Shown here in pieces: positions 549-43,578 of a DNA stretch of 64,000 nucleotides. The number at the start of each line of letters is the position of its first letter. The first letter of the stretch is position 1. This DNA is from Candidatus Latescibacterota bacterium (GTDB taxonomy: Bacteria; Latescibacterota; UBA2968; UBA8231), in contig OZ242005.1 in the NCBI GenBank assembly GCA_965204725.1, forward strand, positions 4,288,001-4,352,000, in the 5' to 3' direction. The notes beneath the pieces were generated by a model. That model saw nothing but the letters and a program-made list of their open reading frames with translations. It had not been told where the DNA came from and searched no databases. Made by a program: the position numbers and the translations under genes.

Positions 549-577
549 TTGGTGCTATTGGGAAGTCATTCTATATT
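549..577 (+). promoter_or_regulatory. Putative sigma70 promoter for tRNA-Sec
   Basis: TTGGTG (549-554), 17 nt spacer, TATATT (572-577), 26 nt upstream of the tRNA. Confidence 0.45.
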
Positions 578-603
578 TCTGCGTACTTGGACGAGCATGT
601 TGC

Positions 604-702
604 GGGAGCGGATGCGTGCCTGGTGGCTGTCGCGGACTTCAAATCCGTTGCGGCGTAGCGAGAGTTGCGCTGGGTGGGTTCGATTCCCACACGTTCCCGC
701 CA
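604..702 (+). tRNA. selC: tRNA-Sec (anticodon UCA)
   Basis: Acceptor GGGAGCGG/ACGTTCCC with G-CCA end; anticodon arm GCGGA-CTTCAAA-TCCGT (TCA at 639-641); 4-nt D loop TGGT; long variable arm CGGCGTAGC-GAGA-GTTGCGCTG; T arm GTGGG-TTCGATT-CCCAC. Confidence 0.95.
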
Positions 703-740
703 GAATTTTAAGTAGCTGTAAAGATAGCGAGAGACCAGCG

Positions 741-3380: not shown

Positions 3381-3396
3381 CCATGCCTTATATGAT

Positions 3397-4638: not shown

Positions 4639-5709
4639 TTGATCAAGCAAGCATGCGGAATCGCAGCGGCCGTGCTGCTGGGTATCTCACCGTCTCAGGC
4701 CCTGCAGCGAACCGACACGGAGTTCAAGATCTTCCAGTTCCCCGCCAACATGATTCCCCGCATTGATGGCCAGACCGACGACTGGACGATGGTCCCCGAC
4801 AGCTATGTATATGGGACCGACCAGCTTTCCGACACGGTCATGGGAAACCTCACCAACTACGACCGCGAGGACTTGGACGTCACCGTGCGCGTCGGTTGGG
4901 TCCAGGGCCTGAACCGGCTCTATTTCCTCTACGAGGCATACGACGACTACTGGAATATGTACTACAAATACGGTGACTTGTTTGAAATCGCCATCGACGC
5001 GGACCGGTCCGGCGGGCCGAACATTGCCAATCCCCAGATTGACGACCCGTGGGAAAGCCACTTCCTGTTCAAGGGAGTGCATGCCCAGAACTACCACATC
5101 TTCACACCGCCCGGAGAAGGCCGGGATTGGGTGTTCGTCTGGGGGTGTCAGCCGTGGATCGGCAAGCTGCCGTATGCCAATCACGCGTACTCATACGATT
5201 TTGAGGAAGGGGAGAGCGGCCAGCTCGTGCTGGAGTTTTGGATCACGCCCTTCGACTACGCTCCGTACGATGGCCCGGAGCGGGCAGCCGTATCAAAGCT
5301 GGAGGAGAACAGCCTAATCGCCCTATCTTGGGCGGTCCTCGATTTCGACGAAGACCACACGAAATACGAGGGGTTCTGGAACCTTTCCCACGAGACGCGC
5401 ATGGACAGCGACGCCTCGAACCTGTGCGCATTCCGATTGATGCCGCTCGAGGCGGAATATCTCGATTCGCTCGAGGCAGAATACTCCTTTACGGTGGTCG
5501 ACATGGATCGCCGGATGGTCGCCTTCACGGATCGGTCCCGTGGAGCGATCACATCGTGGTCGTGGGACTTCGGCGATGGCACGTCGTCAACCGAACAGCA
5601 CCCGATTCACCAGTACGAGGAACCGGGCGAGTTTGTGGTTACGCTGGACATTGAGGGCCCGCAGGGAAAGGCCCGGCGCATCAAAGTGAACCAGGTGATG
5701 GTAAAGTGA
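4639..5709 (+). CDS. Secreted CBM9/DOMON-like sugar-binding protein with C-terminal PKD domain
   Basis: RBS AAAGGA; signal peptide; 'PRIDGQTDDW'; PKD motif 'FTDRS.GAITSWSWDFGDG..STEQHPIHQY..PG.F.VTL'. Confidence 0.8.
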   Translation: MIKQACGIAAAVLLGISPSQALQRTDTEFKIFQFPANMIPRIDGQTDDWTMVPDSYVYGTDQLSDTVMGNLTNYDREDLDVTVRVGWVQGLNRLYFLYEAYDDYWNMYYKYGDLFEIAIDADRSGGPNIANPQIDDPWESHFLFKGVHAQNYHIFTPPGEGRDWVFVWGCQPWIGKLPYANHAYSYDFEEGESGQLVLEFWITPFDYAPYDGPERAAVSKLEENSLIALSWAVLDFDEDHTKYEGFWNLSHETRMDSDASNLCAFRLMPLEAEYLDSLEAEYSFTVVDMDRRMVAFTDRSRGAITSWSWDFGDGTSSTEQHPIHQYEEPGEFVVTLDIEGPQGKARRIKVNQVMVK

Positions 5710-7667
5710 ACTCCAAATTTTTCTGCCAGACGACGACGGGAATGTTCCTGCTCGTCTTAATTGCCCTCGCGCTCAATGGGCGCGACGCTTCGGCCGTGAT
5801 CGTTTACCGCATTGGTGCGCCCTTTTCCAAGGCGGAAAAGGATAGCTTGGAGAAGATCGGCATCGATCTCAGGGAGCTCGACTGGTCGGAAAACGCGCAG
5901 TTGGAGGACGCCCTCGACCCAGACTCGCTACAGGCGGGTGTGCTGCAGCCCAATTTTTTCGCAGAAGACGAGGATATCGCTGCAACGCTGTTGAGCAGAG
6001 ATGGCTGGGTGGCAGTGCAGCGAGAATCCGGGCGGTCCAACTACGACCCCACGGTCGGACACCTGCTGGTCGATCAGGACCCGACTACGGCGTACACGTG
6101 GGATGCCGCCGATGCAGCGACCTTCAACGTCGTTAGCGGTTCATTTTTGAGAGTGCATGTCGATTTGGGCGGGCGCTTCCTCATAAGGGAAGTGAGGCTC
6201 CTAGCGCCCAGTCCGGCCCACTTCCTAGAGCAATTGATTATTGGTGTCAGCGACGAGCGGTACGGTTTAGCTGCATACGTCCCGAATCTCCCAACAGTTG
6301 TGGAGATAAAGGACAATACGGAGGCCGAGATCCGCGTGGTTCTCGATAGACCCGTGACTACCCGCTTTGTGCAGTTGCGGATCATTCGGCAAACGCCCAA
6401 GGAGGTCGGGTTGGCCGCTTTCGAGTTGTACGGAGGAGGGTACGTGCGGCAGGCCTCCTACGAATCCGACGTCATCGAACTAGACGACATCGCCAGCTTG
6501 GGCGAGATCCGCTGGTCGGGACGGCAGGACCCTCACGCTCAGGTCGCCATCCGCACCCGGGCCGGCACCGACCCGCAGCCGGTCATTTTCTGGGAGACCC
6601 GCCCCGAGCAGCAGGACAACGTCAAGTTTCTCCAAGGGGGCGGCGATCTGAGTCTGACCGAGTACAAGCACCAGTACGATAGACTGGCTGATTTCCTCAA
6701 ACCGGAAGACGAGCAGGACAGGGTGCGCCCTGACACGGAGCACTGGAGCTTCTATTCGAGTCCATACGCGTTCGGGTCTCCCGGGGTCCCCATTGCATCC
6801 CCCGGTCCGCGGAAGTTTGTCCAGATCCGAGTGGATTTTGTCTCTACCACGGTTGAAGACGGGGGCAATATCAACTACATAGAGTTCAAGGCGTCGGTCC
6901 CGCCATCGGTTCGCCGCCTAGTAGGGGAGATGCACCCGATCGAGACCCAAGTGGGCGAAACGACGCAATTTACGTATTACATCAGTCCGACGATCCGGTC
7001 CACCGACCGCAGTTTTGACGGGGTGGAGATCGCGACGCCTTCAGGGGTGGTGTCGGTCGATTCGCTGCACATAGCTGGCGTCAATCAGGAGAATTTCTCG
7101 TGGACCATCCACGAAGACGGTCTGGGGTTTGAGGTTCTGCTCCCGCGCCGGCTGGAGCCGACGGACAGCGGTGCGCTGGTGGAGGTGGTATTCACCGCTC
7201 CGGTTCTGAGAGAAGTGGGCAACCTGTTTGCCGGCAGGGTGTTCGACACGGCTAGGCCGCACGAGGTGCGGCAGCGGGTCGTGCCGGGCAATGCGACCGA
7301 TGCGATCGCGAGCGATCGCTTGTCGGTGAGAACGGCTCTGAGCGAATCGCTGGTGTTTTCGCCTCGGATCGCGCCGAATCCGTTCACGCCAAACGGCGAT
7401 GGGGTGAATGAGGTGGTGAACATATCGTACAAGCTGCTGCGGTTGACCTCAGCGGTGCCGGTGTCGCTCGAGATCTACGATCTGTCGGGCCGGCGGGTGA
7501 GGCGGGTGCATGAGGGGGAAGATCCAGTGGGTGAGTACAACCACGTGTGGGATGGCCGGGACGACTCGAACGGCTTGGTGCCGTCGGGGCTGTATCTGTA
7601 CCGGCTGGTGGTAGATGGGCAGTCAGAGAGGGAGACCCGCAGCGGCGTCGTTGCGGTGGCCTATTGA
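5706..7667 (+). CDS. Secreted protein with discoidin-like domain and C-terminal FlgD-Ig/CHU_C-like tail (paralogue 1)
   Basis: Signal peptide; C-terminal 'PNPFTPNGDGVNE...IYDLSGRRVR...WDGRDDSNGLVPSGLYLY...VAVAY'; GTGA overlap with the upstream gene. Confidence 0.85.
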   Translation: MNSKFFCQTTTGMFLLVLIALALNGRDASAVIVYRIGAPFSKAEKDSLEKIGIDLRELDWSENAQLEDALDPDSLQAGVLQPNFFAEDEDIAATLLSRDGWVAVQRESGRSNYDPTVGHLLVDQDPTTAYTWDAADAATFNVVSGSFLRVHVDLGGRFLIREVRLLAPSPAHFLEQLIIGVSDERYGLAAYVPNLPTVVEIKDNTEAEIRVVLDRPVTTRFVQLRIIRQTPKEVGLAAFELYGGGYVRQASYESDVIELDDIASLGEIRWSGRQDPHAQVAIRTRAGTDPQPVIFWETRPEQQDNVKFLQGGGDLSLTEYKHQYDRLADFLKPEDEQDRVRPDTEHWSFYSSPYAFGSPGVPIASPGPRKFVQIRVDFVSTTVEDGGNINYIEFKASVPPSVRRLVGEMHPIETQVGETTQFTYYISPTIRSTDRSFDGVEIATPSGVVSVDSLHIAGVNQENFSWTIHEDGLGFEVLLPRRLEPTDSGALVEVVFTAPVLREVGNLFAGRVFDTARPHEVRQRVVPGNATDAIASDRLSVRTALSESLVFSPRIAPNPFTPNGDGVNEVVNISYKLLRLTSAVPVSLEIYDLSGRRVRRVHEGEDPVGEYNHVWDGRDDSNGLVPSGLYLYRLVVDGQSERETRSGVVAVAY

Positions 7668-9193
7668 CAATCGTTTTTTTTAGTCGCCCTGAGTTTCGCG
7701 GTATCGTCGGCTGTGCGGCATTCGCTGTCTGCTTCCTGATATGCACCCAGCCGCTTCTCGGCGGGGAATCCGCCGGTGAACACCACTACAGACTCGGTCT
7801 GCGCCATCTGCAGAGCGGTGACTTCGAGAGTGCCGAGCGGGAATACAAGAAAGCGATCGCGATGGACTCGACGGACCTTCGCCCGCGCGATGGCCTCGGT
7901 TTCATCTATGCTCTACAGAATAGATTCCAAGAGGCAGAGGCAGAATTCGAGCGAGTACTGGAGATTGACCCCGACTACGCGCCGTCTCTCTACAAGCTGG
8001 GAAAGATCTTCCTGATTCGCCAAGATCGCGAAAAAGCGAAGGATGCCTACGAAAGAGCAATCGCATCTGAGCCGACCTACTTCCCCGCTCATCACGGGCT
8101 CGGCATGATCTACTCGCAGGAGGGAAAACCGGCCGCGGCGGCCGAGCACTTCAAGACTGTGCTCCGGCTCAAGCCCGACTACGGCCCCTCTCGCTACCGA
8201 CTTGGAGCCATCTATCTTCAGGAACAGGAATACGCCAAAGCGATAGAAGAACTGCAACAGGCTGCAAAGCTGATCGAGAATGAACCGTCGGTCCACTACA
8301 TCTTGGGAAATGCGTACATGACCATCGGCAGACTGAGCGAAGCGGCAGACGCATTTGCCGCAACCCTACAGCTCGACCCCCGTCGTGCAGACGCGCACGA
8401 CAAGCTGGGCCTCGTCTATACCGAACAGTCACATGTGCCCTTGGGAGCGGCAATGGCAGACCAAGACAAACTCGCTGCCGCCGTGCAGGAACACCGCAAG
8501 GCGGTTGAGCTGGCCCCCGACAACGGCTGGTTCCAGCACAACCTCGGCATGGCCTATGAGCGGCAGCGCAATTACGAGGAAGCGGCGGCGCAGTACAGAA
8601 AGGCCCTGACGGTGGATCCCGACCTTGCGTACCCGCGCTACCGCCTCGGTATGATTTACTCCAGAAGCAGGAAATACGAGGAGGCTGTCGATCAGTACAG
8701 GCAGGCAATCGAGCGCGAGCCGGACAACGCGCTCTTCCACTACGCCTTGGGAGCGGTGTATGCCCGGACCGGAAGCGCCCAAGCGGCGATCGCGGCGTAT
8801 GAAAAGGCCATCGAACTCGACTACTTCAACACAGAAGCGCATTTCGGGCTTGCCAACGCCTATCTCAAGCAAGGGAATCGCGAAGAGGGCGAGAGGGCGA
8901 TGCAGATATTCCAAAAGCAGCGCGAAGGCAACATCGCCGCCCTCGAACGCAACGTCGCCTTGGTCCCCGACAATCCGCAGTTTCACTTCGAGCTCGCTGT
9001 GCATTATTCCAGACAGGGGCGGGACATCAGTGCCATCAATGAGTACAAGCTCGCCATCGCTCTCGACCCTACCAATGCCGAGTACCATCGCCGCCTCGGC
9101 GACGCCTACCTGAAAACGGGCCGGTACCATGAAGCGGACGAGCAGTTCGAGATCGCTCGCCGACTGGAGCCGACAGACGAGAACGGACCATGA
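7664..9193 (+). CDS. Secreted tetratricopeptide-repeat protein
   Basis: About a dozen TPR units (e.g. 'Y.LG.IY...EA...Y.KA...DP'); probable TTG start at 7664 overlapping the upstream stop, followed by a hydrophobic signal segment. Confidence 0.85.
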   Translation: MTIVFFSRPEFRGIVGCAAFAVCFLICTQPLLGGESAGEHHYRLGLRHLQSGDFESAEREYKKAIAMDSTDLRPRDGLGFIYALQNRFQEAEAEFERVLEIDPDYAPSLYKLGKIFLIRQDREKAKDAYERAIASEPTYFPAHHGLGMIYSQEGKPAAAAEHFKTVLRLKPDYGPSRYRLGAIYLQEQEYAKAIEELQQAAKLIENEPSVHYILGNAYMTIGRLSEAADAFAATLQLDPRRADAHDKLGLVYTEQSHVPLGAAMADQDKLAAAVQEHRKAVELAPDNGWFQHNLGMAYERQRNYEEAAAQYRKALTVDPDLAYPRYRLGMIYSRSRKYEEAVDQYRQAIEREPDNALFHYALGAVYARTGSAQAAIAAYEKAIELDYFNTEAHFGLANAYLKQGNREEGERAMQIFQKQREGNIAALERNVALVPDNPQFHFELAVHYSRQGRDISAINEYKLAIALDPTNAEYHRRLGDAYLKTGRYHEADEQFEIARRLEPTDENGP

Positions 9194-10932
9194 GCCGCCC
9201 CCGAATGGCTCGCGGATCTCGCCTCTACGCCTCCGGGCTCTATTTTCTCATCTCGATCGCCCCCTGTGCCCGCTTGCAGGCTGCCGACGACGGGCTCGGC
9301 CCCCGGGTACAGTTTGTCGATGTCGCGGCCGAGGTCGGCGTCACCTTGATGAATGTATCCGGTGATGGCGAACAGCAGTACGTAGTTGATGCCTTCATGG
9401 GGGGAGCGGCCTTCTTCGACTCCGACCGGGACGGGGACTTGGATCTGTATGTGCTAAACGGGTCGAGAGTGGGAGGATTTCCCGGCCGAGACCGCCCGCG
9501 CAATGCCCTCTACCGCAACGAGGGCGCGACGTTTTCAAACGCCACAGAAGAATCGGGCCTCGGGGACACCGGTTGGGGAATGGGCTGCGCCGTGGCCGAT
9601 TACGACAACGACGGGGATGCGGACCTCTACGTGACCAACTACGGCAACAACGCGCTGTACGAAAATCGGGGCGATGGGGCCTTTGCCGATGTCGCGCAGC
9701 ACACAGGAGTCTTGGGTGCTGAGGCTTTCAGCACCGGATGTGCTTTCTTCGACTCCGACCGCGATGGAGATCTCGACCTGTATGTGGCGAACTACGTCGA
9801 TTTCGATCACTTCATGCAAACCACTCCCGACAGGAGGCACGAGTGGCGGGGGTTGACCGTCCATTTCGGGCCTCACGGGATGCGAGGGGCGGCGGATGTA
9901 TTCTACCGCAACGAGGGCGAGGGCGTCTTTTCCGATGCGACGGCCGGAGCCGGTCTTGTGGAGCGAGACCTGCTGTACGGACTCGGTGTCGTTGCGGGAG
10001 ACTACGACAACGATGGCGACTCGGATATTTACGTAGCCAACGATACAGGCCCCAACTATCTCTACGAGAACAAGGGCGACGGGACCTTTACCGACGTGGC
10101 TTGGATAAAGGGTGCGGCATACGGCGAGGGCGGCGAGCCTCAAGGGTGCATGGGCATTGCCTTCGGAGACTACGACAACGACGAGTATCTAGACATATTG
10201 GTCACCAACTTCTGGGAAGAGACGAACACCCTGTATCACAACGACGGAGGGCGATTTTTCTCGGATCTCACTTTTGATGCGGGCGTGGGGTTGGAGAGCT
10301 TCCAGTTCCTCGCCTGGGGCACCGGGTTCTTCGACTACGACAACGATGGCGATAAGGATCTTTTCGTCGCCAACGGCCATGTCTATCCGCAGGTCGATAG
10401 GGCAAACTTGGGAGTCAGCTATGCCCAGACCAATCAGCTATTTGAAAATATGGGAGATGGCACCTTTGCCGAAGTGTCCCTGACTTCGGGCGCGGGACTG
10501 CAACTCAAGAAGGTAAGCAGGGGTGCTTCTTTCGGGGATTACGATGAGGATGGCGATCTCGACATATTCGTCCTAGATCTCAACGATCGCCCGACGCTGC
10601 TGCGCAACGACGGGGGCGATCGCAACAACTATCTGATAGTCCGGGCGGAAGGCACCGAGAGCAACAGGGACGGCATCGGCACTCGGGTAAAACTCCGCTG
10701 TGGGGATGTGACTCAGGTCAATGAGGTGCGGAGCGGTTCGAGCTATCTATCGCAGAACGACCCGCGGGCTCACTTCGGCTTGGGCGAGTGCATTACGATA
10801 GACCGACTCGAAGTATTCTGGCCGAGCGGTCTGGTCGAGAGCTTTGAAGATCTGCCCGCCAACACGGTCTTGGTGATTCGCGAGGGAAGCGGAATCGTTC
10901 AGCAGAGCCAAGACGGCCCTACTGCACGGTAA
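9190..10932 (+). CDS. CRTAC1-family protein (FG-GAP/VCBS repeats plus ASPIC/UnbV domain)
   Basis: Repeated 'DYDNDGD.DLYV.N' motifs; C-terminal 'SNRDGIG..V...GSSYLSQ...HFGLG...WPSG'. Confidence 0.92.
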   Translation: MSRPRMARGSRLYASGLYFLISIAPCARLQAADDGLGPRVQFVDVAAEVGVTLMNVSGDGEQQYVVDAFMGGAAFFDSDRDGDLDLYVLNGSRVGGFPGRDRPRNALYRNEGATFSNATEESGLGDTGWGMGCAVADYDNDGDADLYVTNYGNNALYENRGDGAFADVAQHTGVLGAEAFSTGCAFFDSDRDGDLDLYVANYVDFDHFMQTTPDRRHEWRGLTVHFGPHGMRGAADVFYRNEGEGVFSDATAGAGLVERDLLYGLGVVAGDYDNDGDSDIYVANDTGPNYLYENKGDGTFTDVAWIKGAAYGEGGEPQGCMGIAFGDYDNDEYLDILVTNFWEETNTLYHNDGGRFFSDLTFDAGVGLESFQFLAWGTGFFDYDNDGDKDLFVANGHVYPQVDRANLGVSYAQTNQLFENMGDGTFAEVSLTSGAGLQLKKVSRGASFGDYDEDGDLDIFVLDLNDRPTLLRNDGGDRNNYLIVRAEGTESNRDGIGTRVKLRCGDVTQVNEVRSGSSYLSQNDPRAHFGLGECITIDRLEVFWPSGLVESFEDLPANTVLVIREGSGIVQQSQDGPTAR

Positions 10933-12580
10933 ACGCCGCCGCGAGCCGGTCCTCGTGGATTGACACTTCTGACTCGTAGCGGCGGCGCAGTTCTTCTATG
11001 TACTCGTTGAACGCGTTCCGGTGTCTCTCGCGTCTGAGCTGCGATCGGACCCTCAGTTCCGCTTCGGCGAAGGTCTCGCGCTTGCGTTCCCGGGAGAGCA
11101 CCTTGAAGATGGAGTAGCCCTCCTGCACCTCGACCGGTCCCGTGAGCTCGCCGACTTCGGCCTCAACCGCCGCTTCCACGAAGCCGCCGAACTGGGGCGA
11201 TTCGTAACGATGCACGTGGAATCGACCCTCGTCATCGCGCACCTTGAGCGATCGAATCGAATGCCTCTTCGCTAGGTCGCCAAAAGCGGCACCGTCCTCG
11301 ATCATCCCTTTCAACCGCAGTGCTTCTATTTCTGTTCGGACGAGGATCTCCTGCACCTCGGTCTGTTCGGGATGCAGGAGTCTCTCAGCGTTGGCCTCGT
11401 AGTACTGGCGCAGGTCGTCTTCAGTGATAGTCACCCTCTCCTTTAACACGTAGGCTCTGAGGCTTCTGATCAACACCTGCTTCCCCTGCTCTTTGAGCCA
11501 TTGGGCCACCTCCGCTTCGCGATCGATCCCTTGGCGCACAGCCGCCTCCTGAATCATTACATCCGGGACGATGTACCGCTCGACAAAGGCGACCACCTGC
11601 TCGGCGTCGCGGAGTGTCTCTAGGACATTGCCCTTGCGGCTTTTGGCCGTGCCGATGAGATCTGCCGCTGTGATCGCTCCGCCGTCGTACTGGTAGAGGG
11701 CGATAGCAGATGGGTCGTGGCCGACATCCGCCGCACCGGAGCGCAGTACCTCAACGGCCGCGGCGATGCCGTCTCGGACCGGCTCGAGGCGGTATCTGTC
11801 CCTCAATTCCGCGACCAACTCAGCCTTCGCGCTTTCGCGCTTCTTTCGCCCGAGTTCTTCGGCGATTCTCTTCCGCTGCCGCGGATTGAGCTGAGCGGTC
11901 GTCTCATCGAGGATCTTGAAGACGACGTATCGGTCACCGATTTGAACCGGATCCGACACCGAGCCTACCGCGAGCCCAAACAGCTTCTCGGCGAGGCCGG
12001 GAATCATCTCGTCCCTAGTGGCGAACCGGCCTGTGTCCCCGCCCCGGGCCGCGGTCTCTTCGTTCATCGACAGCTTCCTCGCGAGGTCCGCGAAGCTCGC
12101 CCCTCCCGCGATCTCCCTCACAGCCTTCTCTGCTGTCTCGAGGTCGGCGACGAAGATGTCGCCCAGTCTGATAGCGCGGGCGAGTCTCTCCCGGTCTATG
12201 TACTCTTCTACTTCACCGTCTTCTACCGTTGCGTCGATCGTTCTGCGCTCGTACTCACCGACGAGCTTCGCCTTCCTGATTCGGATCATCCTAGTCAGGT
12301 AGGCGGAGCTCGTCTCGATGCCTTGGCTTCGGGCTTCCATCACCAGCAGTTCTGTGTCGATCATGGTCTGTAGATGGTCTCTCAACGGCACCTCCCCGGC
12401 TTCTCCACCCTTGGCGTACTCGGGCAGTCTGGCGAGGAAGTCCCGCACGTCCTGTACCGTGATCGTCTGGTCGCCAACCGCCGCGACCGTGGGATTTTCA
12501 TCCTGCGGTCCGCAGCCTGTGCAAATTAAGAGGAGCGCTAGGCTACCTAGTGCTCCGCAGCAGAAAGAAAAAGCGTGCAT
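10919..12580 (-). CDS. PrsA/SurA-like parvulin (PpiC-type) lipoprotein chaperone with two rotamase domains
   Basis: ATG 12580 with RBS GGAGG; lipobox-like 'ICTGC'; 'GASFADLARKLS...RGGD.G', 'G.VSDPV', 'FGDLAKRHS', 'VGELTGPVEVQEGYSIFKV'. Confidence 0.85.
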   Translation of the reverse strand: MHAFSFCCGALGSLALLLICTGCGPQDENPTVAAVGDQTITVQDVRDFLARLPEYAKGGEAGEVPLRDHLQTMIDTELLVMEARSQGIETSSAYLTRMIRIRKAKLVGEYERRTIDATVEDGEVEEYIDRERLARAIRLGDIFVADLETAEKAVREIAGGASFADLARKLSMNEETAARGGDTGRFATRDEMIPGLAEKLFGLAVGSVSDPVQIGDRYVVFKILDETTAQLNPRQRKRIAEELGRKKRESAKAELVAELRDRYRLEPVRDGIAAAVEVLRSGAADVGHDPSAIALYQYDGGAITAADLIGTAKSRKGNVLETLRDAEQVVAFVERYIVPDVMIQEAAVRQGIDREAEVAQWLKEQGKQVLIRSLRAYVLKERVTITEDDLRQYYEANAERLLHPEQTEVQEILVRTEIEALRLKGMIEDGAAFGDLAKRHSIRSLKVRDDEGRFHVHRYESPQFGGFVEAAVEAEVGELTGPVEVQEGYSIFKVLSRERKRETFAEAELRVRSQLRRERHRNAFNEYIEELRRRYESEVSIHEDRLAAAFTVQ

Positions 12581-12612
12581 CGAGCACCTCCACTCAAGTT
12601 CGCGTCTATGCC

Positions 12613-15291
12613 CTAATCTAGACCGGCGTACATCGTGGCAAAGGACACGCTGCCCGTCTCGGTCTCGCCATCTATTGATCTTCTGGTCAATCTCATACCC
12701 ATGTTCGTCAACAGCCGGTAACCGAGGTAGTTGGTGACGTTCGAGAACTGCACCGCTCCGACGATCTCGGTGAAATCGTCCAAGAGTCCCTCCTTGACCG
12801 CGGTCTCTGATTTGCGCAGTTGGTTGAAGATCGTGTACTCCACACCGACCTGCATGGTGGAAGAAGAAAAGAGCGGCCATCGCGCCAGCAGGGAGAACAG
12901 CAGCGTGTCTTCCCTGCGCTCGGGATCAGACCTGAACGCCGGAGCCTCCAGCCTGAGTTCGTTCTTTATTCTCGGCATGAGATCGACATAGGCGACCTTG
13001 CGCTCGAGGTCCACCTTGTTGATGAGACCTAAGAAGGTGGAGTCCTCGCGCAGATCGGGCTGCCGTTTGTTCTGGTGCCAGTGATCGTACTTGAACTTAC
13101 TGACGAAATTCACATTCTCGATCTTGGTGTACTTAAAGCTCAGGAACGTCGAGTTTATCCACGTGTCTTGAGCCGCTAGGGGATCGACGGTTGGAACGTT
13201 CCGCCGCTCGAACTCGCTCCACTGGCGAAGATCGTTCTCGATGTTGTCCTTGGCGCTTCTGAAGTTCTCGTAGATCTTCAGCCTGCCAAGACCCGGATAG
13301 TCCCGTTCCAAGGTGAAAAGCACGTAGTTCGTCGCGTTCTCCCCGTCACCTGCAATCAGCCTCTCATCCGTGCGTCCGACGGTCAGCCTGATGCCCGGAA
13401 GCAGATCGACGCCGCCGTAGATGTTGTATCCTTCGTGGTCCCTCGGGTAGGGAAAATCCGGCTCATCATCGTTTTCAAACCGATCTACCCAGAGGTTGTT
13501 GTTCATATCCAATCCGAACAGGTACTCCGGCCGGTCTGTTCCGTATTTCAAGAACGGCTCGTCGTAATCCGGGACGAGATTGGGAAGGTCTTCGCTGTCG
13601 TTCTGGTTGAAATCGGATATGAAGTCGAGGTTTTCGTCGTACCCGGGAAACACTTCGACATCTATGTTTTGGAATATCCTCTGCCAGTCGGGGAATCGGT
13701 CCTGATCGTCGTTGTCGTCAACGAGCTCGTAGAAGAACCTCCCCTCGTCCGAGTAGTCTATGTTGGTCTCGCCCCTAGCCAAGATGGCACTGGTGTTGTA
13801 GTTGTGGGCCATGCTGTAGGCTTCGCCGAAGAAGAAGAACGGCTGGCCGATTTTCGATAGATTCAACATCCAGCCATCGCCTTGGTCAGAGGCCCCCAAG
13901 TGCTTGGTGTGCGCCCTGTTGGGGTACTTCCTGTAACTCACACTGCGGTCCCATTCTCCGTACAAGTCGAATCCCCAGAGGCGGGTCGCCTCCAGCGTAA
14001 ATCCGAATATCTCGGTGGCCGTCGGCAGACCATAGGGGATCTTCAGGACGGTCAGGTTGGAGCCATCCTTGACGTTATCATCGGCTCTGGCAGCGAGCAG
14101 ATAGACGTTGGCCAACTGCCGGTCGAACTGGCGGTTCGAGGTCGTCTCGATTCTGTAGTCGTTGGCAACTACCAGCTCGAATGTCACCCTTCTTATCTCC
14201 GACGGATCCGGGCCGGTGTACGTCGCCACCGAGAAGTCGTAGATCAGTTCGATCTGCTCGGAGCCGCTCGCCTCCCAAAACCCCAGCCTCTGAAAGCCGC
14301 CCTGGGGCGCGGGAATCAGCCCGACGTCGCTGGCCCGGACGGTCTCCCTCTCGAAACTCACCTCCCCCGTTTCATCGATCGTTTCGACGTCGGCCTCTAT
14401 GATCAGGTCCCACGCAAACAGCGTGGCACCGCCTTCGTTGTCCTCTGGCGAGTCGTCTGAGAGTCGCACGAAGACCTCGGTGACGTTCTCCGCGTTCTGA
14501 CTGGAGGCGATCGAACCGCTTCGCGGGCTACCCTCGAAGGCGTCGAGGAGCTGAGAGGAGTTGTGGGCGCTCACGTGGTTGACGCCGAGTTTGAGATAAT
14601 CTCCAACTTGGGTCGTCGCACGTCGGCCGGTCAGGGTCGTCGAGTTCGTCTGCTGGTTATTGGGGCTTCGCGAGCCGGCGGCACCCGGCGAGCTGACCCG
14701 CGAGAGGAGCGCCGTTACTTCGTACTTGTCGGACTGATAGTCGATCTGGATGCCATCGAACGCCGGCTTGGAGAAGGTCATCGGGGTCAGGGTCGACCGG
14801 ATCTCGTCGCCGATGGTGATGGCCAGATTGTGCTGTCCCTTCTGATCGGAGGCTATGACCAGATTGCTGAAGAAACTCTGGAACCGTCCGGTCTTGAACA
14901 GATTGCTTCCCCCCTGCTGGGGCTGGGTCTGGCTCCAGTCGTAGATCAGCCATCCTCTGGTGATGTACGAACCGTAGATGTCGTAGAAGTAGTCCCCCTC
15001 GAGATTGATCGATACATAGCGCTGGTAGTGATCTCTCGCGTAGTTGCTGTACTCCCACTGCTTCCACTGATATTCGCGAAACAGCTCCTGTGGGACGTAC
15101 CACTTTTTGACCGCGGGGTCTAGTGCGCCGAACAAGACGCCGGGCCCCGTCGGTTCAAACGTGAGCGCGCCGCCGCGGTGAACCCCCTTTATCCGATCTC
15201 GATCAGGACCTTGGGCTTCCGAGCGAGTGTTGTGCAGCAGAATTGCCGAGACGATGATGCACCAGATGGCCAGTGTACCGATTAGGCGCAT
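12613..15291 (-). CDS. Large secreted hypothetical protein, predicted outer-membrane beta-barrel with Asp-rich Ca-binding loops
   Basis: Signal peptide MRLIGTLAIWCIIVSAILL (alternative start 15321); alternating amphipathic strands; Dx[DN]xD loops (DDNDDQD, DENLDFISD, DMNNNLWVD); ends ATMYAGLD. Confidence 0.75.
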   Translation of the reverse strand: MRLIGTLAIWCIIVSAILLHNTRSEAQGPDRDRIKGVHRGGALTFEPTGPGVLFGALDPAVKKWYVPQELFREYQWKQWEYSNYARDHYQRYVSINLEGDYFYDIYGSYITRGWLIYDWSQTQPQQGGSNLFKTGRFQSFFSNLVIASDQKGQHNLAITIGDEIRSTLTPMTFSKPAFDGIQIDYQSDKYEVTALLSRVSSPGAAGSRSPNNQQTNSTTLTGRRATTQVGDYLKLGVNHVSAHNSSQLLDAFEGSPRSGSIASSQNAENVTEVFVRLSDDSPEDNEGGATLFAWDLIIEADVETIDETGEVSFERETVRASDVGLIPAPQGGFQRLGFWEASGSEQIELIYDFSVATYTGPDPSEIRRVTFELVVANDYRIETTSNRQFDRQLANVYLLAARADDNVKDGSNLTVLKIPYGLPTATEIFGFTLEATRLWGFDLYGEWDRSVSYRKYPNRAHTKHLGASDQGDGWMLNLSKIGQPFFFFGEAYSMAHNYNTSAILARGETNIDYSDEGRFFYELVDDNDDQDRFPDWQRIFQNIDVEVFPGYDENLDFISDFNQNDSEDLPNLVPDYDEPFLKYGTDRPEYLFGLDMNNNLWVDRFENDDEPDFPYPRDHEGYNIYGGVDLLPGIRLTVGRTDERLIAGDGENATNYVLFTLERDYPGLGRLKIYENFRSAKDNIENDLRQWSEFERRNVPTVDPLAAQDTWINSTFLSFKYTKIENVNFVSKFKYDHWHQNKRQPDLREDSTFLGLINKVDLERKVAYVDLMPRIKNELRLEAPAFRSDPERREDTLLFSLLARWPLFSSSTMQVGVEYTIFNQLRKSETAVKEGLLDDFTEIVGAVQFSNVTNYLGYRLLTNMGMRLTRRSIDGETETGSVSFATMYAGLD

Positions 15292-15349
15292 CGCACCTCT
15301 GACTGTATGACCGGTCACCATTTGACTCCCCCTTACCTTTCGCGAAAAA

Positions 15350-17092
15350 TCAATAGACCAAAGGCACGATCGCAGTCTTGCTCTCCGTACCTGTATCGGT
15401 AGCGACTTCCACGCGCACGAGGTAAACTCCCGGCGATAGCATTTGTCCGTTGTCGTCCGCGCCGCCCCAGACTCTCTGATATTTTCCACTGATGGCGAGG
15501 TCGGAGTAGATCACCCTTCTGAGGTTGCCGGCGAGGTCGTAGATTTGTACCGACACCGGAGTACCGCCTGTCAGGTTCGCGATATCGTAGGTGACGGTGG
15601 CTTGGTCGTTGACTCCATCGCCATTGGGCGTAAACGGAGTTGGGGCAACCTCGAGGAAGTGGATGCGGTTGTCGGCGACCCGGGTGGTGACCGACAGGTC
15701 GTCGCCCTCGGCGACGGGGTCCGCGTCCACGTCTCCCTCGACGAGCGTCTGCGGCAAGTTCTGCGGTCTCTGGGTGTCGGCGACCCTGCCGATGAAGACG
15801 GTGTTGTAGTGCAGCGCGATGCTCTCGAACACGACGCGCAGCAGCCGGTCGTCACCGGTGATCCTCGGGAAGCTAATTCGGACGCCGACGATGTTGCCAT
15901 CGTCTTTGATGTCCTCCTGGTCCCACGCCACGTCGATCCCGTCGATCTGGACCGATCGGATGACCTCCACCGGCGCCTGCGTCTCGATGTCGAGCCGGTC
16001 GAAGCCGCTGCTGTTGTAGCTGCGCACCCAGTAGGTCAGCTCGGTCGCCTGCCCGATCACGGCGTCTTGGGGCCACACCTCCCCCACCACGGAATCGGCC
16101 AGTGCTGGCGAGACCTCCACGGCGATCGAATCGACCGTCGCGGCCGAAAGGATGTCGCTGCTCTGGAACAGAACGCGAAACTGCCAGTACTGGCGAGGCG
16201 CAGGTGATGCGATCGGTGTACGGACTCCGGCCGGATAGGGGACAGACCATCCGCTCCACGCTAGGCTATCGCTCGGGTCCGGCGTGTGGCCACTTCGGGT
16301 AGATACGGTAGCAGATACCTTGGTCGGCTCTCCGATCGTCTCCTTAGCCCACGTTATACCGCCGAAGATGGCGGGCCGATCCTCATCGAACACCTTTGAA
16401 ACGTATGCAGCAGCAGATGTGAAACCTTCGCCGAAGATCTCAAACTCGTCGATCTCCCATTCCCCTCGAACGAGCTGTTTCACCTCTATGAAACGCACGA
16501 ACTGCAGCGGCACCGCTATATCGACGACCGGGTCGAGATTGCGCTCGACTGTCTTGAAGAGTCTGAGATCGGGATTTCCGGCAACGGTCTGCTGCTCCTC
16601 GCTGCCGTCGTTCAGCCTCACGAGGTAACCCTTCAGGAAGAACTCTTCGAACCCTGCGCGGGGGAAAAATCTGATCCTGTTGACTCCGAAACGCTCGCCT
16701 AGATCAAATCTCAGTATGATCCCTGTGGCTGACGGGATCTTGATTTCAAAGGCCGTGTTCCTGCCGTCCACCATGTTGTCCAACAAGTCCTCGAATTCAC
16801 TCTGGGTGACTTCGAGGACCGTGCGCGCATTTGGCGACGTTATTTGCCCTCCCCTTTCGATCAACTTCAGGGAGATATTGTCTTCAGGATCGTTCTGTAA
16901 AGGTTGAATGGAACCGGGATTGGCTGCGAAATCGATGACCGCTACCTCGGAATACTCCTGATCCCAGGCGCGGGAACCCGGCCCCCCTCCGAAGACGATC
17001 GTCTCTCCATTGCCTGCCGCCGCAAGTCCGAGGAGAGCTACGGACAGAACGGGCAGGGCCACTGCTCTATGAGGTGATGTTCCAGTTATCAC
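15350..17092 (-). CDS. Secreted protein with discoidin-like domain and FlgD-Ig/CHU_C-like tail (paralogue 2)
   Basis: Signal peptide; 'PTPFTPNGDGVND...IYDLAGNLRR...WGGADDNGQMLSPGVYL...VPLVY'. Confidence 0.85.
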   Translation of the reverse strand: MITGTSPHRAVALPVLSVALLGLAAAGNGETIVFGGGPGSRAWDQEYSEVAVIDFAANPGSIQPLQNDPEDNISLKLIERGGQITSPNARTVLEVTQSEFEDLLDNMVDGRNTAFEIKIPSATGIILRFDLGERFGVNRIRFFPRAGFEEFFLKGYLVRLNDGSEEQQTVAGNPDLRLFKTVERNLDPVVDIAVPLQFVRFIEVKQLVRGEWEIDEFEIFGEGFTSAAAYVSKVFDEDRPAIFGGITWAKETIGEPTKVSATVSTRSGHTPDPSDSLAWSGWSVPYPAGVRTPIASPAPRQYWQFRVLFQSSDILSAATVDSIAVEVSPALADSVVGEVWPQDAVIGQATELTYWVRSYNSSGFDRLDIETQAPVEVIRSVQIDGIDVAWDQEDIKDDGNIVGVRISFPRITGDDRLLRVVFESIALHYNTVFIGRVADTQRPQNLPQTLVEGDVDADPVAEGDDLSVTTRVADNRIHFLEVAPTPFTPNGDGVNDQATVTYDIANLTGGTPVSVQIYDLAGNLRRVIYSDLAISGKYQRVWGGADDNGQMLSPGVYLVRVEVATDTGTESKTAIVPLVY

Positions 17093-17129
17093 TTGCTGAA
17101 CACGGCTCCTTGGTGTTCTGTCGCGGAGA

Positions 17130-19910
17130 CTAGTAGGCGACGCGCACCAATCGATGGACCGAGGTTTTCTTCTCGGATGTCGAATCCACTTTTAGGTCGA
17201 TGCGCATCAGATAGATCCCCGGTGGCACGACCGCTCCCGACGGGTCGACGCCCGTCCACGTCACCGTATGACGGCCGGCCGTTATGGTCGTCTCGGCTAT
17301 GCGCACCACCGGTCGGCCGGCTAGATCGTACACGTCCACTTGGACCGGTGCCGAACTGAGCACTCGCAGCAGCGAAAAACGGACCTCCAGCTCGTCGTTG
17401 ACGCCGTCGCCATTGGGCGTGAAAACGCGATCGACCTGTAGATCCCCCAGCAACTCGCCGCGCTCCAGTGCCAACACCACCGTCGTCTCGCTGTCCACAA
17501 CCCCGTTGGCATCGCCGTCATCCACCCGCTGCCACGAGTTGGCGAACGCCGAGTGCCCCGTGGAGCCGATGAAAAACGTGTTGTACCCAAATATGGTCGC
17601 CTCGAACTGAAGCTCCACCAGCGCGGAGCCACTCGTCGTCTTAATCGCAGCCGGCAGCCGCACCCACAGCGAATCCGTCTCCATCACCACCTCGAACCCC
17701 TCGCTCTCCGCCGAATACGTCACGGCGTCCTGCCCCGTCACGGCTACATTCACCTGTTTCAGCGTCATATCAACGCCGTCGGGTGCCTCGATAAGGATCT
17801 CGTCGAACCCCCTACTGCTCGCCTTGAAGGTCGAACGGATGAAATACGATAGCTGCTGCTTCGCGCCGATCTCCTCCAGACGCGAGGGCAGTATCTCGCC
17901 CACGATCGCGCCGGCCACCGGCGTCACGAAGTTCAGTGCCACCGAACGCAGCGTGGCCGCCGCCTTGGGGTCTTCTGTCAGGAAGATCGCCCGGATGGCG
18001 GCGAACCGTCTGGGACTGGGCGAGGTAATTTTTGCGCCTGAATCGAAGTAAGGCTGACTCCAGCCGCTCCAGTCATTGCCCGGGCGCGTCTCGGTTATGA
18101 CCGGCCCTACCGAAGCATCCCCGAAGAACTTCTTATCCGTCTCGTAGGCGTTGGCCGCCTCCTCTTCGGTGCCCGGGTACAAATCCCCGTTCTTCTTGTA
18201 GTAGCGGGTTATGCTCTCGACCGTATCGCCGGTTCGGGTTTGCAAAATTATATTCGCACCCGGCGGCACATCGGCCTCCCACTTGATGGAAGCTAGGTTC
18301 CTAGGGGTCCGCGCCACCTCTATGAACGGGGCCTCCCCGCCGAACTCAGACGAGATCTGCGCCTCCGGCAGGAAGCCTTCCCCGAAAAACTGGACCTCCG
18401 ACACCCCGTGACTCCCTTGCCCGGGCTCGTACGTGGAGCGGTCGTGGAGCCTATAGGTAAAGGCAAAATGCTCGACCTTCGTGAGCGGGAACTTGAAGTC
18501 GTGGAAATTCTGCCCCCGCACGATGTCGCTGAGCGACCCCACCGTCTTCCAGGCCAGTTCGCCGCCGGCATTGGTGGAGCCGTCCGAGAGTTGAATGCGG
18601 TAGGCTCTGAACGGAGGTGGGTTGGGGAGGGCGTGGAGTATTCTGATATTGTCCACAAAGTAGGAGCCTCCGAGATCTATGAACATCGAGCGCTCCGCAT
18701 CCCGCGGATCCGCAATCGGCAACTTGTTGGGATCGTAACTCCCGTTGGCAGACCAGAACACGACCTCGCCGAAGAGGTCTCCATCTACCACGGCCGCCCC
18801 CTTGTTGATATTCTCCTGGGCGCTCACCCTGCCGCCCCGCTCCAGTACGCCCGTGCCGATGTTGTCGCCGATGGTCCAGACCTCGATCTCGGCCAGCCTC
18901 GGCATTTCGCGGCGGTAGTAGATTATCGGCCCCTGCCGCTCTGTGCCCGCCAGAGCTTCCCAATCCTCTTTCCCATCCAGCAACCTCACCTCCCCCGACA
19001 CTTCTCGCCGGAAGTGATCTATCTCTCCCTGTTGGTCGGCTGGCAGACCGTCGTATTCGGACTGAGAAACCTGCCTCGCCCTGCCGAAGTCGCTGTCCGT
19101 GATCCCCACCCCGACGTATTGGATGACGTCGCCGGTGAAGTCGCCCAGTGCATCGGGCCACTTCGTCGGTAGCTGTTTGGTCAGATCGATCTCGAAAACC
19201 CGCTCGTTCTTGATCGGTTTGTCCGTGGTAAAGCGCGTTCGGAAAAGGAGCTGACCGAGCGTTTTCTGTCCCTGTGAAGTGATCACCTTGAACTGAAGAA
19301 AAGGGTCTCCCAGATCTTCACCGACAAACTTGAGGACGATCTTGGTGGCCGATACCGTCCGCCCCAGATCGATCTGCACCCACCAGTCCTGCAACAGGTC
19401 GGAGGGGTCCGGTTCCCAGAAGGTGTCCATCCTGCCATCCATGAGGTCGATGCCGCTCGAGCGATTGGATCCGGCATTCAACACACCGCCGCCGAAATCG
19501 ACGGCATTGAGAGCGGCGTTGATGCCGGGAACCACCACTTCCTCGCCATCTATTTCCAGTCTCGTGTGCTTGCGGATGAAGGCGGGTTTCACTCCCTCAT
19601 CGCTGATCTGGACCGTGTTGGCAGCGGAGTGCCAGCGTTCCCAATGCGCCTTGGAATCGACGACTACTCTGCCTGACTGTAGCGAATACCCCTCCTGTCC
19701 CCAGCACGGACATACCGCCGACAACGTCAACGCGGAACAGACGAGTGCCGCGCGGAGGGGGTCCGTTAGCCGTTGAGCGCCGATCCATCCCCGCTCGCGG
19801 TGTTTCCTACCTACGCCGTGCGGCACTCGGGTTCTCGTCGAGTTCAGCGATAGCGCCGTTGAGCGCACTTCGTTCTCCTTATCTTGCTCCCGAGCTTGCG
19901 CCCCGCTCAT
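17130..19910 (-). CDS. Secreted protein with two discoidin-like domains and FlgD-Ig/CHU_C-like tail (paralogue 3); start uncertain
   Basis: 'LMDG...T.W.P...WWVQIDLGR.V'; 'VFTPNGDGVND...VYDLAGR.V...WTG.D..G.VVPPGIYL...VRVAY'; the hydrophobic signal segment lies about 50 aa into the ORF, so the true start may be downstream. Confidence 0.8.
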   Translation of the reverse strand: MSGAQAREQDKENEVRSTALSLNSTRTRVPHGVGRKHRERGWIGAQRLTDPLRAALVCSALTLSAVCPCWGQEGYSLQSGRVVVDSKAHWERWHSAANTVQISDEGVKPAFIRKHTRLEIDGEEVVVPGINAALNAVDFGGGVLNAGSNRSSGIDLMDGRMDTFWEPDPSDLLQDWWVQIDLGRTVSATKIVLKFVGEDLGDPFLQFKVITSQGQKTLGQLLFRTRFTTDKPIKNERVFEIDLTKQLPTKWPDALGDFTGDVIQYVGVGITDSDFGRARQVSQSEYDGLPADQQGEIDHFRREVSGEVRLLDGKEDWEALAGTERQGPIIYYRREMPRLAEIEVWTIGDNIGTGVLERGGRVSAQENINKGAAVVDGDLFGEVVFWSANGSYDPNKLPIADPRDAERSMFIDLGGSYFVDNIRILHALPNPPPFRAYRIQLSDGSTNAGGELAWKTVGSLSDIVRGQNFHDFKFPLTKVEHFAFTYRLHDRSTYEPGQGSHGVSEVQFFGEGFLPEAQISSEFGGEAPFIEVARTPRNLASIKWEADVPPGANIILQTRTGDTVESITRYYKKNGDLYPGTEEEAANAYETDKKFFGDASVGPVITETRPGNDWSGWSQPYFDSGAKITSPSPRRFAAIRAIFLTEDPKAAATLRSVALNFVTPVAGAIVGEILPSRLEEIGAKQQLSYFIRSTFKASSRGFDEILIEAPDGVDMTLKQVNVAVTGQDAVTYSAESEGFEVVMETDSLWVRLPAAIKTTSGSALVELQFEATIFGYNTFFIGSTGHSAFANSWQRVDDGDANGVVDSETTVVLALERGELLGDLQVDRVFTPNGDGVNDELEVRFSLLRVLSSAPVQVDVYDLAGRPVVRIAETTITAGRHTVTWTGVDPSGAVVPPGIYLMRIDLKVDSTSEKKTSVHRLVRVAY

Positions 19911-20014: not shown

Positions 20015-20929
20015 CTATTTGGAGAAGCCCGCCTTAATGCGGCCCCAACTGTCGTCCTCGACCGATGTGTCGTCGGAGTCGGGCACCCAGTTGTTTGCGT
20101 CAAAACCAAGTAGCACGTAATCTACCAAGGAGTCGGCGTTGAAGTACATGTTGATGTCGCCAGTGGAGACCCAGTAGCCGTTGTACGAATTGCCTGGGCC
20201 GTTGTCATCGTCCTGAATGGCCATGCCGATGCCCATGACTTGGCCTTCCTGCAAGTCGTGAATTTTCAGGTCGGGATCGTCGGGACCGGTCGAACTGGCA
20301 GGCAGGTCGTCGAAGGTGGTGAACCAACTCTCCTGAAAGAGGGTGGCGGGTCCACCGGCCTCGCCCTCGACGTTCCATCTGATGCCGGCGTAAGGCTCCA
20401 CGGAAGCCCATACTCCGCCGCCCCACAACCACAACTGAGCCTCCTGATGGAGCGACTGCTGCCAGTCCTGCGCGGCGGCCCCGGCCCATCGCTCTGGATC
20501 TAGGTCGATAGATTCCACGCCTTGGAACTGCCCGCCGCTGTGGTCGGCATCGAGCACGAGCTCGAGTTTGTCGTTGGTGTCTTCGATGGTGCCGTACCAG
20601 AGGTCGTCGAACCTTTCCTCCATGACGTACACAAGGTTGGTCTCTGGGCTCCAGCCGACGATGAGGCGCTCGGCGAGATTGCCCGGATCGGGGTCACCTT
20701 GGGTGCCCGTGACGACCTCGATGAGGTCATTGTGGGTTACCCAGAAGACAGACGGTACGTTGTCCCAATCGCCGAGATCTCCGTCCATCACGACGTTCCT
20801 GACTCCATCGACATCGATGGGCACCTGTACCGCCGCCCAGTTCCGGTCTGTCCGCTGGTGGGCCGAACTCGGAGTAAAGGAGGCGAGGACGAGGCCCAAA
20901 ACGGCAGCTATGATGATAATTTTTTTCAC
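20015..20929 (-). CDS. Secreted CBM9/DOMON-like protein with C-terminal 'TSVEDDSWGRIKA' tail
   Basis: GTG start with RBS GAAAGGAG; signal peptide KKIIIIAAVLGLVLASFTPSSA; 'MDGDLGDW','VGWS','DADHSGG' shared with 4639-5709. Confidence 0.8.
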   Translation of the reverse strand: MKKIIIIAAVLGLVLASFTPSSAHQRTDRNWAAVQVPIDVDGVRNVVMDGDLGDWDNVPSVFWVTHNDLIEVVTGTQGDPDPGNLAERLIVGWSPETNLVYVMEERFDDLWYGTIEDTNDKLELVLDADHSGGQFQGVESIDLDPERWAGAAAQDWQQSLHQEAQLWLWGGGVWASVEPYAGIRWNVEGEAGGPATLFQESWFTTFDDLPASSTGPDDPDLKIHDLQEGQVMGIGMAIQDDDNGPGNSYNGYWVSTGDINMYFNADSLVDYVLLGFDANNWVPDSDDTSVEDDSWGRIKAGFSK

Positions 20930-21178
20930 TGTTGCTTCTCCTTTCATCATGTAGAATGATGACTGCTACTACTGCGTTGATTGTATGAAATGAGGACTTT
21001 TCCCTTGAACTGAACACCTCCTTTCATCGCATCAATATGGAAATTGCAAGAGCAATTCGGCGTTAATATGGGGAATTATGCCCGGAGATACAAGGAAAAT
21101 CGAGGGTATCCATTTAACCGGACTTGGGGTATCTTATGAAGGACTTCCTCACTTGGGTAGTTCTTGCTTAAGGCGTAG

Positions 21179-43448: not shown

Positions 43449-43578
43449 AGCGGCTGTTCCTCTCGCTTGGGTTGCGAGAAGATAGGAGGAGGGTGGAGAT
43501 GGGTCAATGCGGATTGGTGAGGCGTTGGTTGCTTGCTTATTTTTACGCGCCGCACAGCCGAGGCCAAGGAGCAGCCAC

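Follow-up and report, generated by a model that had tools for sequence, protein, structure and literature searches.

What brings three long, strongly divergent proteins with the same order of motifs together in one stretch of a Latescibacterota genome? The stretch, hereafter the window, comprises 64,000 nucleotides of a Candidatus Latescibacterota bacterium (GenBank assembly GCA_965204725.1, contig OZ242005.1, positions 4,288,001 to 4,352,000 of the forward strand; coordinates below are counted from its first letter). The open reading frames (ORFs) of the three proteins, P0001, P0002 and P0003, are open and free of internal stops. We see an even chance that they are lectin-like surface proteins, secreted by a type IX secretion system (T9SS), that capture glycans together with an outer-membrane barrel encoded in the same gene cassette. 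The three genes are as follows.

5706..7667, + strand: P0001, 653 amino acids (aa), subfamily A, one discoidin head.
15350..17092, - strand: P0002, 580 aa, subfamily C, directly upstream of the barrel gene B.
17130..19910, - strand: P0003, 926 aa, subfamily D3, extra N-terminal discoidin module.

An earlier, sequence-only reading of the window had proposed that an ordered motif series is common to these proteins, and in our three-way alignment both the columns and their order match. Given as P0001/P0002/P0003, the series runs from DLGGRF/DLGERF/DLGGSY over FELYGGGY/FEIFGEGF/VQFFGEGF, IRTRAG/VSTRSG/LQTRTG, WSFYSSPY..IASPGPR/WSGWSVPY..IASPAPR/WSGWSQPY..ITSPSPR, VGEMHP/VGEVWP/VGEILP and SFDGVEI/GFDRLDI/GFDEILI to FTPNGDGVN and a terminal V.[VL][AV]Y. 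P0002 and P0003 are 32% and 28% identical to P0001 in this alignment, and the tails alone (last 100 aa) of the three share 39-45% identity. With the last 100 aa cut off each protein, BLASTP remained significant for P0001-P0002 (E 1.4e-27, 25% over 510 aa), P0001-P0003 (E 5.4e-20, 24% over 420 aa) and P0002-P0003 (E 4.1e-17, 30% over 176 aa). The likeness is therefore not confined to the last ~100 aa and reaches beyond the FlgD-type tail, as had been claimed. The family profile matches 3 of the 357 window ORFs of at least 80 aa.

The AlphaFold2 model of P0001, built from an alignment of 45 relatives (pLDDT 76.3, pTM 0.60), starts with a hydrophobic helix, a putative signal peptide, which is followed by a small alpha/beta part. 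The remaining chain divides into these domains.

5961..6452, + strand: P0001 residues 86-249, head with discoidin/CBM32 fold, containing DLGGRF and FELYGGGY.
6453..6905, + strand: residues 250-400, family-specific beta-rich domain 2, containing IRTRAG and WSFYSSPY..IASPGPR.
6915..7250, + strand: residues 404-515, Ig-like beta-sandwich with VGEMHP and SFDGVEI, drawn from modelled secondary structure and conservation.
7353..7664, + strand: residues 550-653, C-terminal sorting-type domain from FTPNGDGVN to VAVAY, seven predicted strands.

Domain 2 carries a variable inserted loop at residues 297-345, modelled with low confidence, and a disordered linker joins the Ig-like domain to the C-terminal domain. 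Residues 86-249 are predicted to adopt the galactose-binding-like beta-sandwich fold of F5/8 type C and CBM32 domains. The structural comparison program VIA aligned them with the chitosan-binding module 4zxe_A (Z 16.0, rmsd 2.2 Å, 127 aa), with 4a42_B (Z 15.9) and, below the best match, with dozens of CBM32s and fucolectins; the CBM32-type matches have Z 12-16 over about 125-135 residues. Foldseek gave TMt 0.84 against 4zz5, and a sequence profile matches neuropilin b1 (E 3.9e-5). Pfam finds the C-terminal domain in all three window proteins and one further match, the F5/8 type C module of P0003. This extra module at residues 156-217 scores 38.4 bits with PF22633 (cut-off 27.8) and 32.4 bits with PF00754 (cut-off 28.2). 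Elsewhere, F5/8 type C reaches 12.4 bits in P0002 and has no match in P0001, so that P0003 alone passes the cut-off. The lectin/CBM32 fold of the model makes it reasonable to regard the head as ligand-binding, as the sequence-only reading had done.

CBM32 modules are usually appended to glycoside hydrolases, and a profile search found no sequence relative of P0001 residues 240-560 among PDB structures. The proteins might hence be secreted enzymes, with a core that acts as an undescribed catalytic domain and with discoidin modules as its carbohydrate-binding modules. We consider this very improbable. Residues 250-515 are modelled as all-beta sandwich or Ig-like folds with no catalytic-domain match, and W, G, P and F, residues of a structural character, dominate among the near-invariant positions. 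Neither Pfam nor NCBIfam nor the profile search of the PDB returned an enzyme family for the core, and the objection that it might belong to a characterised enzyme family has thus fallen away. The head shares its fold with CBM32 and F5/8 type C lectins; the modules here would differ from these in heading a non-catalytic scaffold. Structural matches of domain 2 are weak, being of high rmsd and limited to two-domain alignments with 7jnb and 4ag4, which hint at a second jelly-roll. hhalign gave no sign of internal duplication (probability 2.4% for discoidin versus domain 2, at most 1.7% for other domain pairs), and a search of the ESM Atlas with residues 250-520 returned unnamed clusters and weak leads only.

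Three members turned out to be a large undercount of the family. Searching the 5.43-Mb genome with P0001 gave 165 matches, and a profile of the three proteins matches 176 of its 21,279 stop-to-stop ORFs of at least 100 aa. These divide into 105 core-bearing paralogues in 52 loci, which occupy 237,846 bases or 4.4% of the genome, and 71 ORFs that share the last ~70 residues only. Among the 105, the motif residues are almost invariant: W347 is kept in 102, G287 in 100 and G437/F438 in 101/100, and towards the C terminus P562/N563/D565 in 103/99/103 and the terminal Y in 101. Alignment occupancy is 0.49 in the N-terminal part and 0.76 in the discoidin part, and it is at least 0.94 in domain 2, the Ig-like domain and the C-terminal domain. 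The general layout of a member comprises a signal-peptide-like N terminus, the discoidin/CBM32-fold head or heads, the beta-rich core, an Ig-like domain and the sorting-type tail. One discoidin-like module is found in 69 members, two in 35 and none in a single member; two modules are the rule in clade D (34 of 37). Orthologues of P0001 in 10 other Latescibacterota genomes are 83-85% identical to it, the discoidin domain being their least conserved part (75% versus 85-95% for every other mature domain). Paralogue occupancy, head copy number and orthologue divergence thus agree on a conserved scaffold with a variable head, much as had been read from the three proteins alone. Two of the 10 orthologues (L001:10001-11983 and L007:10001-11965) end in VAVAH in place of the near-invariant terminal Y.

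The family core is not common worldwide: out of 1.84 billion cluster representatives, a profile of domain 2 and the Ig-like domain retrieved 2,512 at E<=1e-3, of which 437 reached E<=1e-30. A single-sequence query detected the core in 55 of 121 sampled Latescibacterota genomes. Within this sample it occurs in 38 of 40 genomes of the window's own taxonomic family, and the same query found it in 0 of 29, 0 of 13 and 0 of 13 genomes of three others.

The C-terminal domain may link the family to type IX secretion. It passes the Pfam CHU_C cut-off of 27 bits in P0001, P0002 and P0003 (40.9/32.1/31.9 bits), in two of them also the FlgD_ig cut-off of 27 (38.7/26.2/32.7 bits), and it resembles the C-terminal domain of PorU. 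Genome-wide, 83 ORFs have the motif [FLIVMY][TS]PN.DG at a distance of 70-120 aa from their end, every one of them a family member. Family proteins end in [VLI][AVS]Y, while the 71 tail-only ORFs lack both the [FLIVMY][TS]PN.DG motif and the terminal Y and end in L/I followed by K/P/R/E. This tail class is hence the family's own and suggests that it has a dedicated partner. Tandem arrays of ORFs of ~720-770 aa, whose likeness to the family is limited to the FlgD-Ig-like tail, lie at C1:2167000-2194000, 4877000-4900500 and 998000-1005000; with these tail-only arrays, a second set of proteins with such tails seems to have expanded.

Of the export machinery, the genome contains both the SprA/Sov translocon and the PorU sortase. 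SprA is present as one 2198-aa frame (TIGR04189, 485.4 + 116 bits, over the cut-off), and PorU scores 623.3 bits with NF033707 (cut-off 420); the adjoining gene is PorV-like (150.5 bits, below the cut-off of 250). All 55 core-bearing genomes of the phylum sample also have SprA. According to PMC12618676, type B substrates of F. johnsoniae need a cognate PorP/SprF-like protein for their secretion, whose gene lies directly downstream, and PMC9143113 describes type B proteins as anchored by binding to PorP-like proteins.

Is there a candidate for such a partner next to the family genes? We clustered all ORFs within 10 kb of family loci, which defined a recurrent cassette with the following members in the window.

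12613..15321, - strand: barrel B, a giant outer-membrane beta-barrel without a named family; 902 aa when counted from the ATG at 15321.
10919..12880, - strand: SurA-like peptidyl-prolyl isomerase (PPIase)/foldase, downstream of B, with Pfam Rotamase_2, Rotamase and SurA_N_3.
20015..20950, - strand: cassette protein C (P0126), 311 aa, upstream of P0003, no Pfam family.
4639..5709, + strand: paralogue of cassette protein C (P0127), 356 aa, upstream of P0001, C-terminal PKD domain.
7547..9193, + strand: TPR protein downstream of P0001, recurrent cassette neighbour.
9190..10932, + strand: FG-GAP/ASPIC-UnbV protein, recurrent cassette neighbour.
24197..26185, - strand: DUF6785 + DUF6784 protein (428 and 104 bits), 16 ORFs in 16 family loci.

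Paralogues of barrel B with ~900-950 aa recur as 39 ORFs in 36 family loci, accompanied by the SurA-like PPIase (28 ORFs in 31 loci), the ~330-aa cassette protein C, of which the window has two copies (29 ORFs in 33 loci), and the TPR and FG-GAP/ASPIC neighbours (63 ORFs in 33 loci). The SurA-like gene of the window probably has its true start downstream of 12880. P0126 and P0127 share an N-terminal part of no known family; P0126 ends in SWGRIKAGFSK and P0127 in its PKD domain. A barrel gene directly follows a run of family genes on the same strand in 28 of 66 runs. The cassette order is kept in 10 other species, and the barrel is its best conserved gene with 91-95% identity. In the phylum sample, the barrel family occurs in 72 of 121 genomes, among them all 55 with the family core. 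In the other 17 (G060, G086 and family f10 among them), the barrel family is present and the core was unmatched by the single-sequence query; these genomes may hold a divergent partner family.

Barrel B matches no Pfam family at E<=10 and no PDB sequence at E<=1. Its AlphaFold2 model (pLDDT 75.9, pTM 0.71) shows about 30 long antiparallel strands, and the top 50 matches both in Foldseek and in VIA are all outer-membrane barrels, including SlpA/SDBC, MtrB, LptD, ushers, SprA and porins. Identities of the family-protein domains and of the barrel correlate across 27 pairs in a Mantel-type analysis (rho 0.36-0.56), which is expected from duplication of whole cassettes and therefore says nothing specific about a fit of tail and barrel. 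At about residues 536-625, the barrel contains an acidic Asp/Asn-rich stretch of low model confidence, with many invariant D/N positions across 37 paralogues at D536-D545, D562-D570, N572-N581 and D605-D622; it has the look of a calcium-binding loop region. Antisense ORFs in the barrel gene (13180-15120, + strand) group with those of other barrel paralogues (65 ORFs in 35 loci); most likely they are no real genes and a by-product of barrel-gene conservation in a GC-rich genome.

In trees of the 105 members, calculated with FastTree and IQ-TREE, each of the three window genes belongs to a separate, well-supported group (24, 18 and 38 rows), and we labelled the clades A, B, C and D1-D3. A single clade of P0001, P0002 and P0003 was rejected (977.6 log-likelihood units worse, p-AU 8.7e-61). 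The sister of each window gene is the gene at the same position of a tandem triplet at C1:3346128-3352594 (64-66% identity, support 100). Two cassette types recur. The order A-D3-C is found in three cassettes, D3-A-C in one, and there are partial forms as well as the D3-C pair of the window with A nearby; B-B-D2 is found in five cassettes and B-D2 in four. The window holds one complete A + D3 + C set, with the A gene on the opposite strand, and this split arrangement is kept in 10 other species. Inheritance of three deep subfamilies as sets fits non-redundant roles or a heteromer and is no proof of contact between the proteins.

The sequence-only reading had also suggested a hetero-oligomer or polymer. 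In such an arrangement A, D3 and C subunits would form a heteromer or fibre, perhaps threaded through the barrel as an usher with the SurA-like protein as chaperone, and the terminal aromatic strand would serve assembly rather than sorting. The recurring sets, including the window's A with D3-C, and the rejection of a single clade speak for old, non-redundant partners; the terminal Y that 101 of 105 members keep, together with the dedicated foldase gene after the barrel, would suit a subunit pathway, and PapC/FimD ushers are among the fold matches of the barrel. This resembles chaperone-usher pili, which likewise combine a large barrel, a periplasmic foldase gene and Ig-containing subunits with a conserved aromatic end strand. 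We nevertheless regard this alternative as improbable. Adjacent genes show no significant avoidance of their own clade (10 of 39 same-clade pairs versus 9.2 expected), and 27 of the 66 family-gene runs consist of single genes. Usher matches of the barrel (PapC/FimD-type, Z 9.1-9.6) lie below those of porins, and no usher, chaperone or pilin family of Pfam matches the barrel, the foldase or the family proteins. Moreover, the subunits here are multidomain proteins of 580-926 aa, the foldase is SurA-like and not PapD-like, and the tail resembles type IX sorting domains.

The arrangement of tail and barrel rather recalls T9SS type B cargo with a PorP/SprF-like partner, as in SprB-SprF, Fjoh_3952-Fjoh_3951 and PG1035-PorP. 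Common to both would be an exported multidomain surface protein with a private, CHU_C-passing tail, an outer-membrane barrel gene directly downstream of the cargo, and the presence of SprA and PorU. The systems differ in that the cassette barrel has about 900 aa and roughly 30 strands without PorP_SprF similarity, that the family tail misses the TIGR04131 cut-off and has seven predicted strands, and that two or three cargo genes per barrel occur in about 30 copies outside the Bacteroidota. The gene found downstream is hence a barrel of another kind than PorP/SprF. By analogy, the cassette may work like a type B cargo with its cognate barrel; we do not file it as a member of that class because the barrel is not PorP-like, the tails miss the NCBIfam cut-offs and GldL/GldM were not found with three models, the controls of which were uninformative.

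A second likeness concerns the polysaccharide utilisation loci (PULs) of Bacteroidota with SusC/SusD and SusE/F. Here, too, many paralogous cassettes pair an outer-membrane barrel with putative surface proteins of carbohydrate-binding fold, the SusE-like protein 7m1b and SusC chains (the latter among the generic matches of barrel B, Z 10.2-12.4) appear among the fold matches, and glycan-degrading genes lie nearby. In contrast to SusC, barrel B has no TonB-dependent receptor or plug family in Pfam at E<=10, and the family proteins carry a sorting-type tail, while Sus surface proteins are lipoproteins.

Glycan-related genes in the window occupy three ORFs.

38832-40316, - strand; 43507-46113, + strand; 45819-47600, + strand: two sulfatases and a PcRGLX-like/GH127-like protein.

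The sulfatases and the PcRGLX-like protein would fit a diet of sulfated polysaccharides. Lectin-type heads, their fast divergence, the many cassettes and these nearby genes together point to surface glycan capture. The analysis itself shows the homology, the domain folds, the size and subfamilies of the family, the recurrence of the cassette, the private tail and the presence of SprA and PorU. We infer a secretion route, display at the surface, a pairing of tail and barrel, glycan binding and a nutritional role, which could be connected as follows. The window genes would be one A, D3 and C set of a lineage-restricted, massively expanded family. Each protein would be made with a signal peptide, and its passage through the outer membrane via the type IX translocon would depend on its private C-terminal domain. 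The displayed protein might then be held or handled by the giant barrel encoded directly downstream, as type B cargo is by PorP/SprF, with the SurA-like foldase serving either barrel or cargo in the periplasm. The conserved core would serve as the stalk for the fast-diverging discoidin/CBM32 heads, which would recognise particular glycans. Roughly 28-36 cassette copies could thus make up a repertoire of capture specificities analogous to PULs.

Several observations weigh against this proposal. The tails stay below the NCBIfam cut-offs, both for type A (TIGR04183, 22.1/18.7/20.2 bits in P0001/P0002/P0003, cut-off 23) and for type B (TIGR04131, 21.9/17.8/14.9 bits, cut-off 35), and the seven modelled strands are compatible with type A. 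PMC12618676 assigns the seven-strand arrangement to type A and a four-strand sheet to type B. In the genome, TIGR03517, TIGR03513 and PF12081 gave no match for GldL/GldM, with uninformative controls, so that absence is not shown; likewise, PF11751 gave no match for PorP_SprF, its control matched nowhere, and absence is again not shown. SprA occurs in 116 of the 121 phylum genomes, including families that lack these genes, and its co-occurrence with the core therefore does not discriminate. The single genes that make up 27 of the 66 runs have no adjoining barrel, and the structural similarity of barrel B is generic (TM 0.14-0.38, Z 8.7-13.2), without a match that stands out. Discoidin folds, furthermore, are known to bind proteins and lipids as well. 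Contigs from four RNA libraries of four studies, labelled sponge metagenome, marine metagenome and two coded organisms, cover parts of barrel B, P0002, P0003 and cassette protein C with 95-99% likeness, and two of them bridge the P0003/P0002 junction; they are compatible with expression and are not proof of transcription, just as stretches without contig cover are not evidence of silence.

The main rival to glycan capture is adhesion or a surface coat. The exported proteins would then attach to a host, e.g., the matrix of a sponge, to particles or to cells, or they would form a variable protective coat, and the diversity of the heads would reflect pressure from host or phage. Adhesion proteins often contain discoidin folds (neuropilin and DDR1 are among the head matches), and the head is the fastest-diverging part of the orthologues. 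Among the top Foldseek matches of the barrel is the Deinococcus S-layer/outer-membrane SlpA complex, RNA libraries with close relatives carry sponge, coral and marine labels, and FG-GAP/ASPIC and TPR proteins recur as neighbours. On the other hand, the head is structurally matched mostly by bacterial carbohydrate-binding modules from glycoside hydrolases, and the neighbourhood includes sulfatases and a polysaccharide-lyase-like gene. A coat that takes about 30 cassettes with a barrel apiece would also be costly, and the P0001 model lacks the repeat-rich stalk typical of long adhesins. On balance we hold this explanation to be unlikely, if still a serious competitor to the capture of glycans.

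Taking glycan capture further, we may tentatively speculate on a three-part lectin complex. In each cassette, an A protein, a double-headed D protein and a C protein would dock by their private C-terminal domains on the cassette-specific barrel, which would both anchor them and take up the glycan. Duplication of cassettes and divergence of heads would then yield new specificities, giving Latescibacterota a modular system of their own, unlike the PULs of Bacteroidota. We rate this elaborate version as doubtful.

Two further genes precede the cassette in the window. P0125 (943 aa, 549-3380, + strand) matches no Pfam family at E<=0.01; its only leads are weak, namely F5/8 type C (E 0.16) and the N-terminal domain of GH123 (E 0.2). 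With 79-91% identity, it is syntenic upstream of the cassette in 10 of 10 orthologous loci and may represent a glycoside hydrolase of an undescribed kind. A multihaem c-type cytochrome gene (3367-4605, + strand) separates P0125 from the cassette; it has a Cytochrome_C7 match and weak matches to DmsE/GSU2203 decahaem proteins. It is found in most of the 10 orthologous loci and is complete in seven. The second-best Foldseek match of barrel B is MtrB, at the level of generic barrel similarity only.

Our literature search, which covered papers exclusive of their supplements, found none on this family or cassette or on type IX secretion in Latescibacterota; in PMC4454575, again exclusive of supplements, discoidin, FlgD, Por secretion and cellulosome each have 0 occurrences.

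Latescibacterota are widespread and uncultured and are thought to live on complex polysaccharides. A family that fills the above share of the genome and accompanies an unnamed giant barrel in about 30 conserved cassettes is likely to be central to the lifestyle of the organism. The pairing of tail and barrel, if true, would extend the type IX logic of cargo and cognate barrel past the Bacteroidota and to a new barrel family, and surface glycan capture would have been solved a second time, by an independent construction. As a natural library of lectin specificities, one could then regard the diverging heads.

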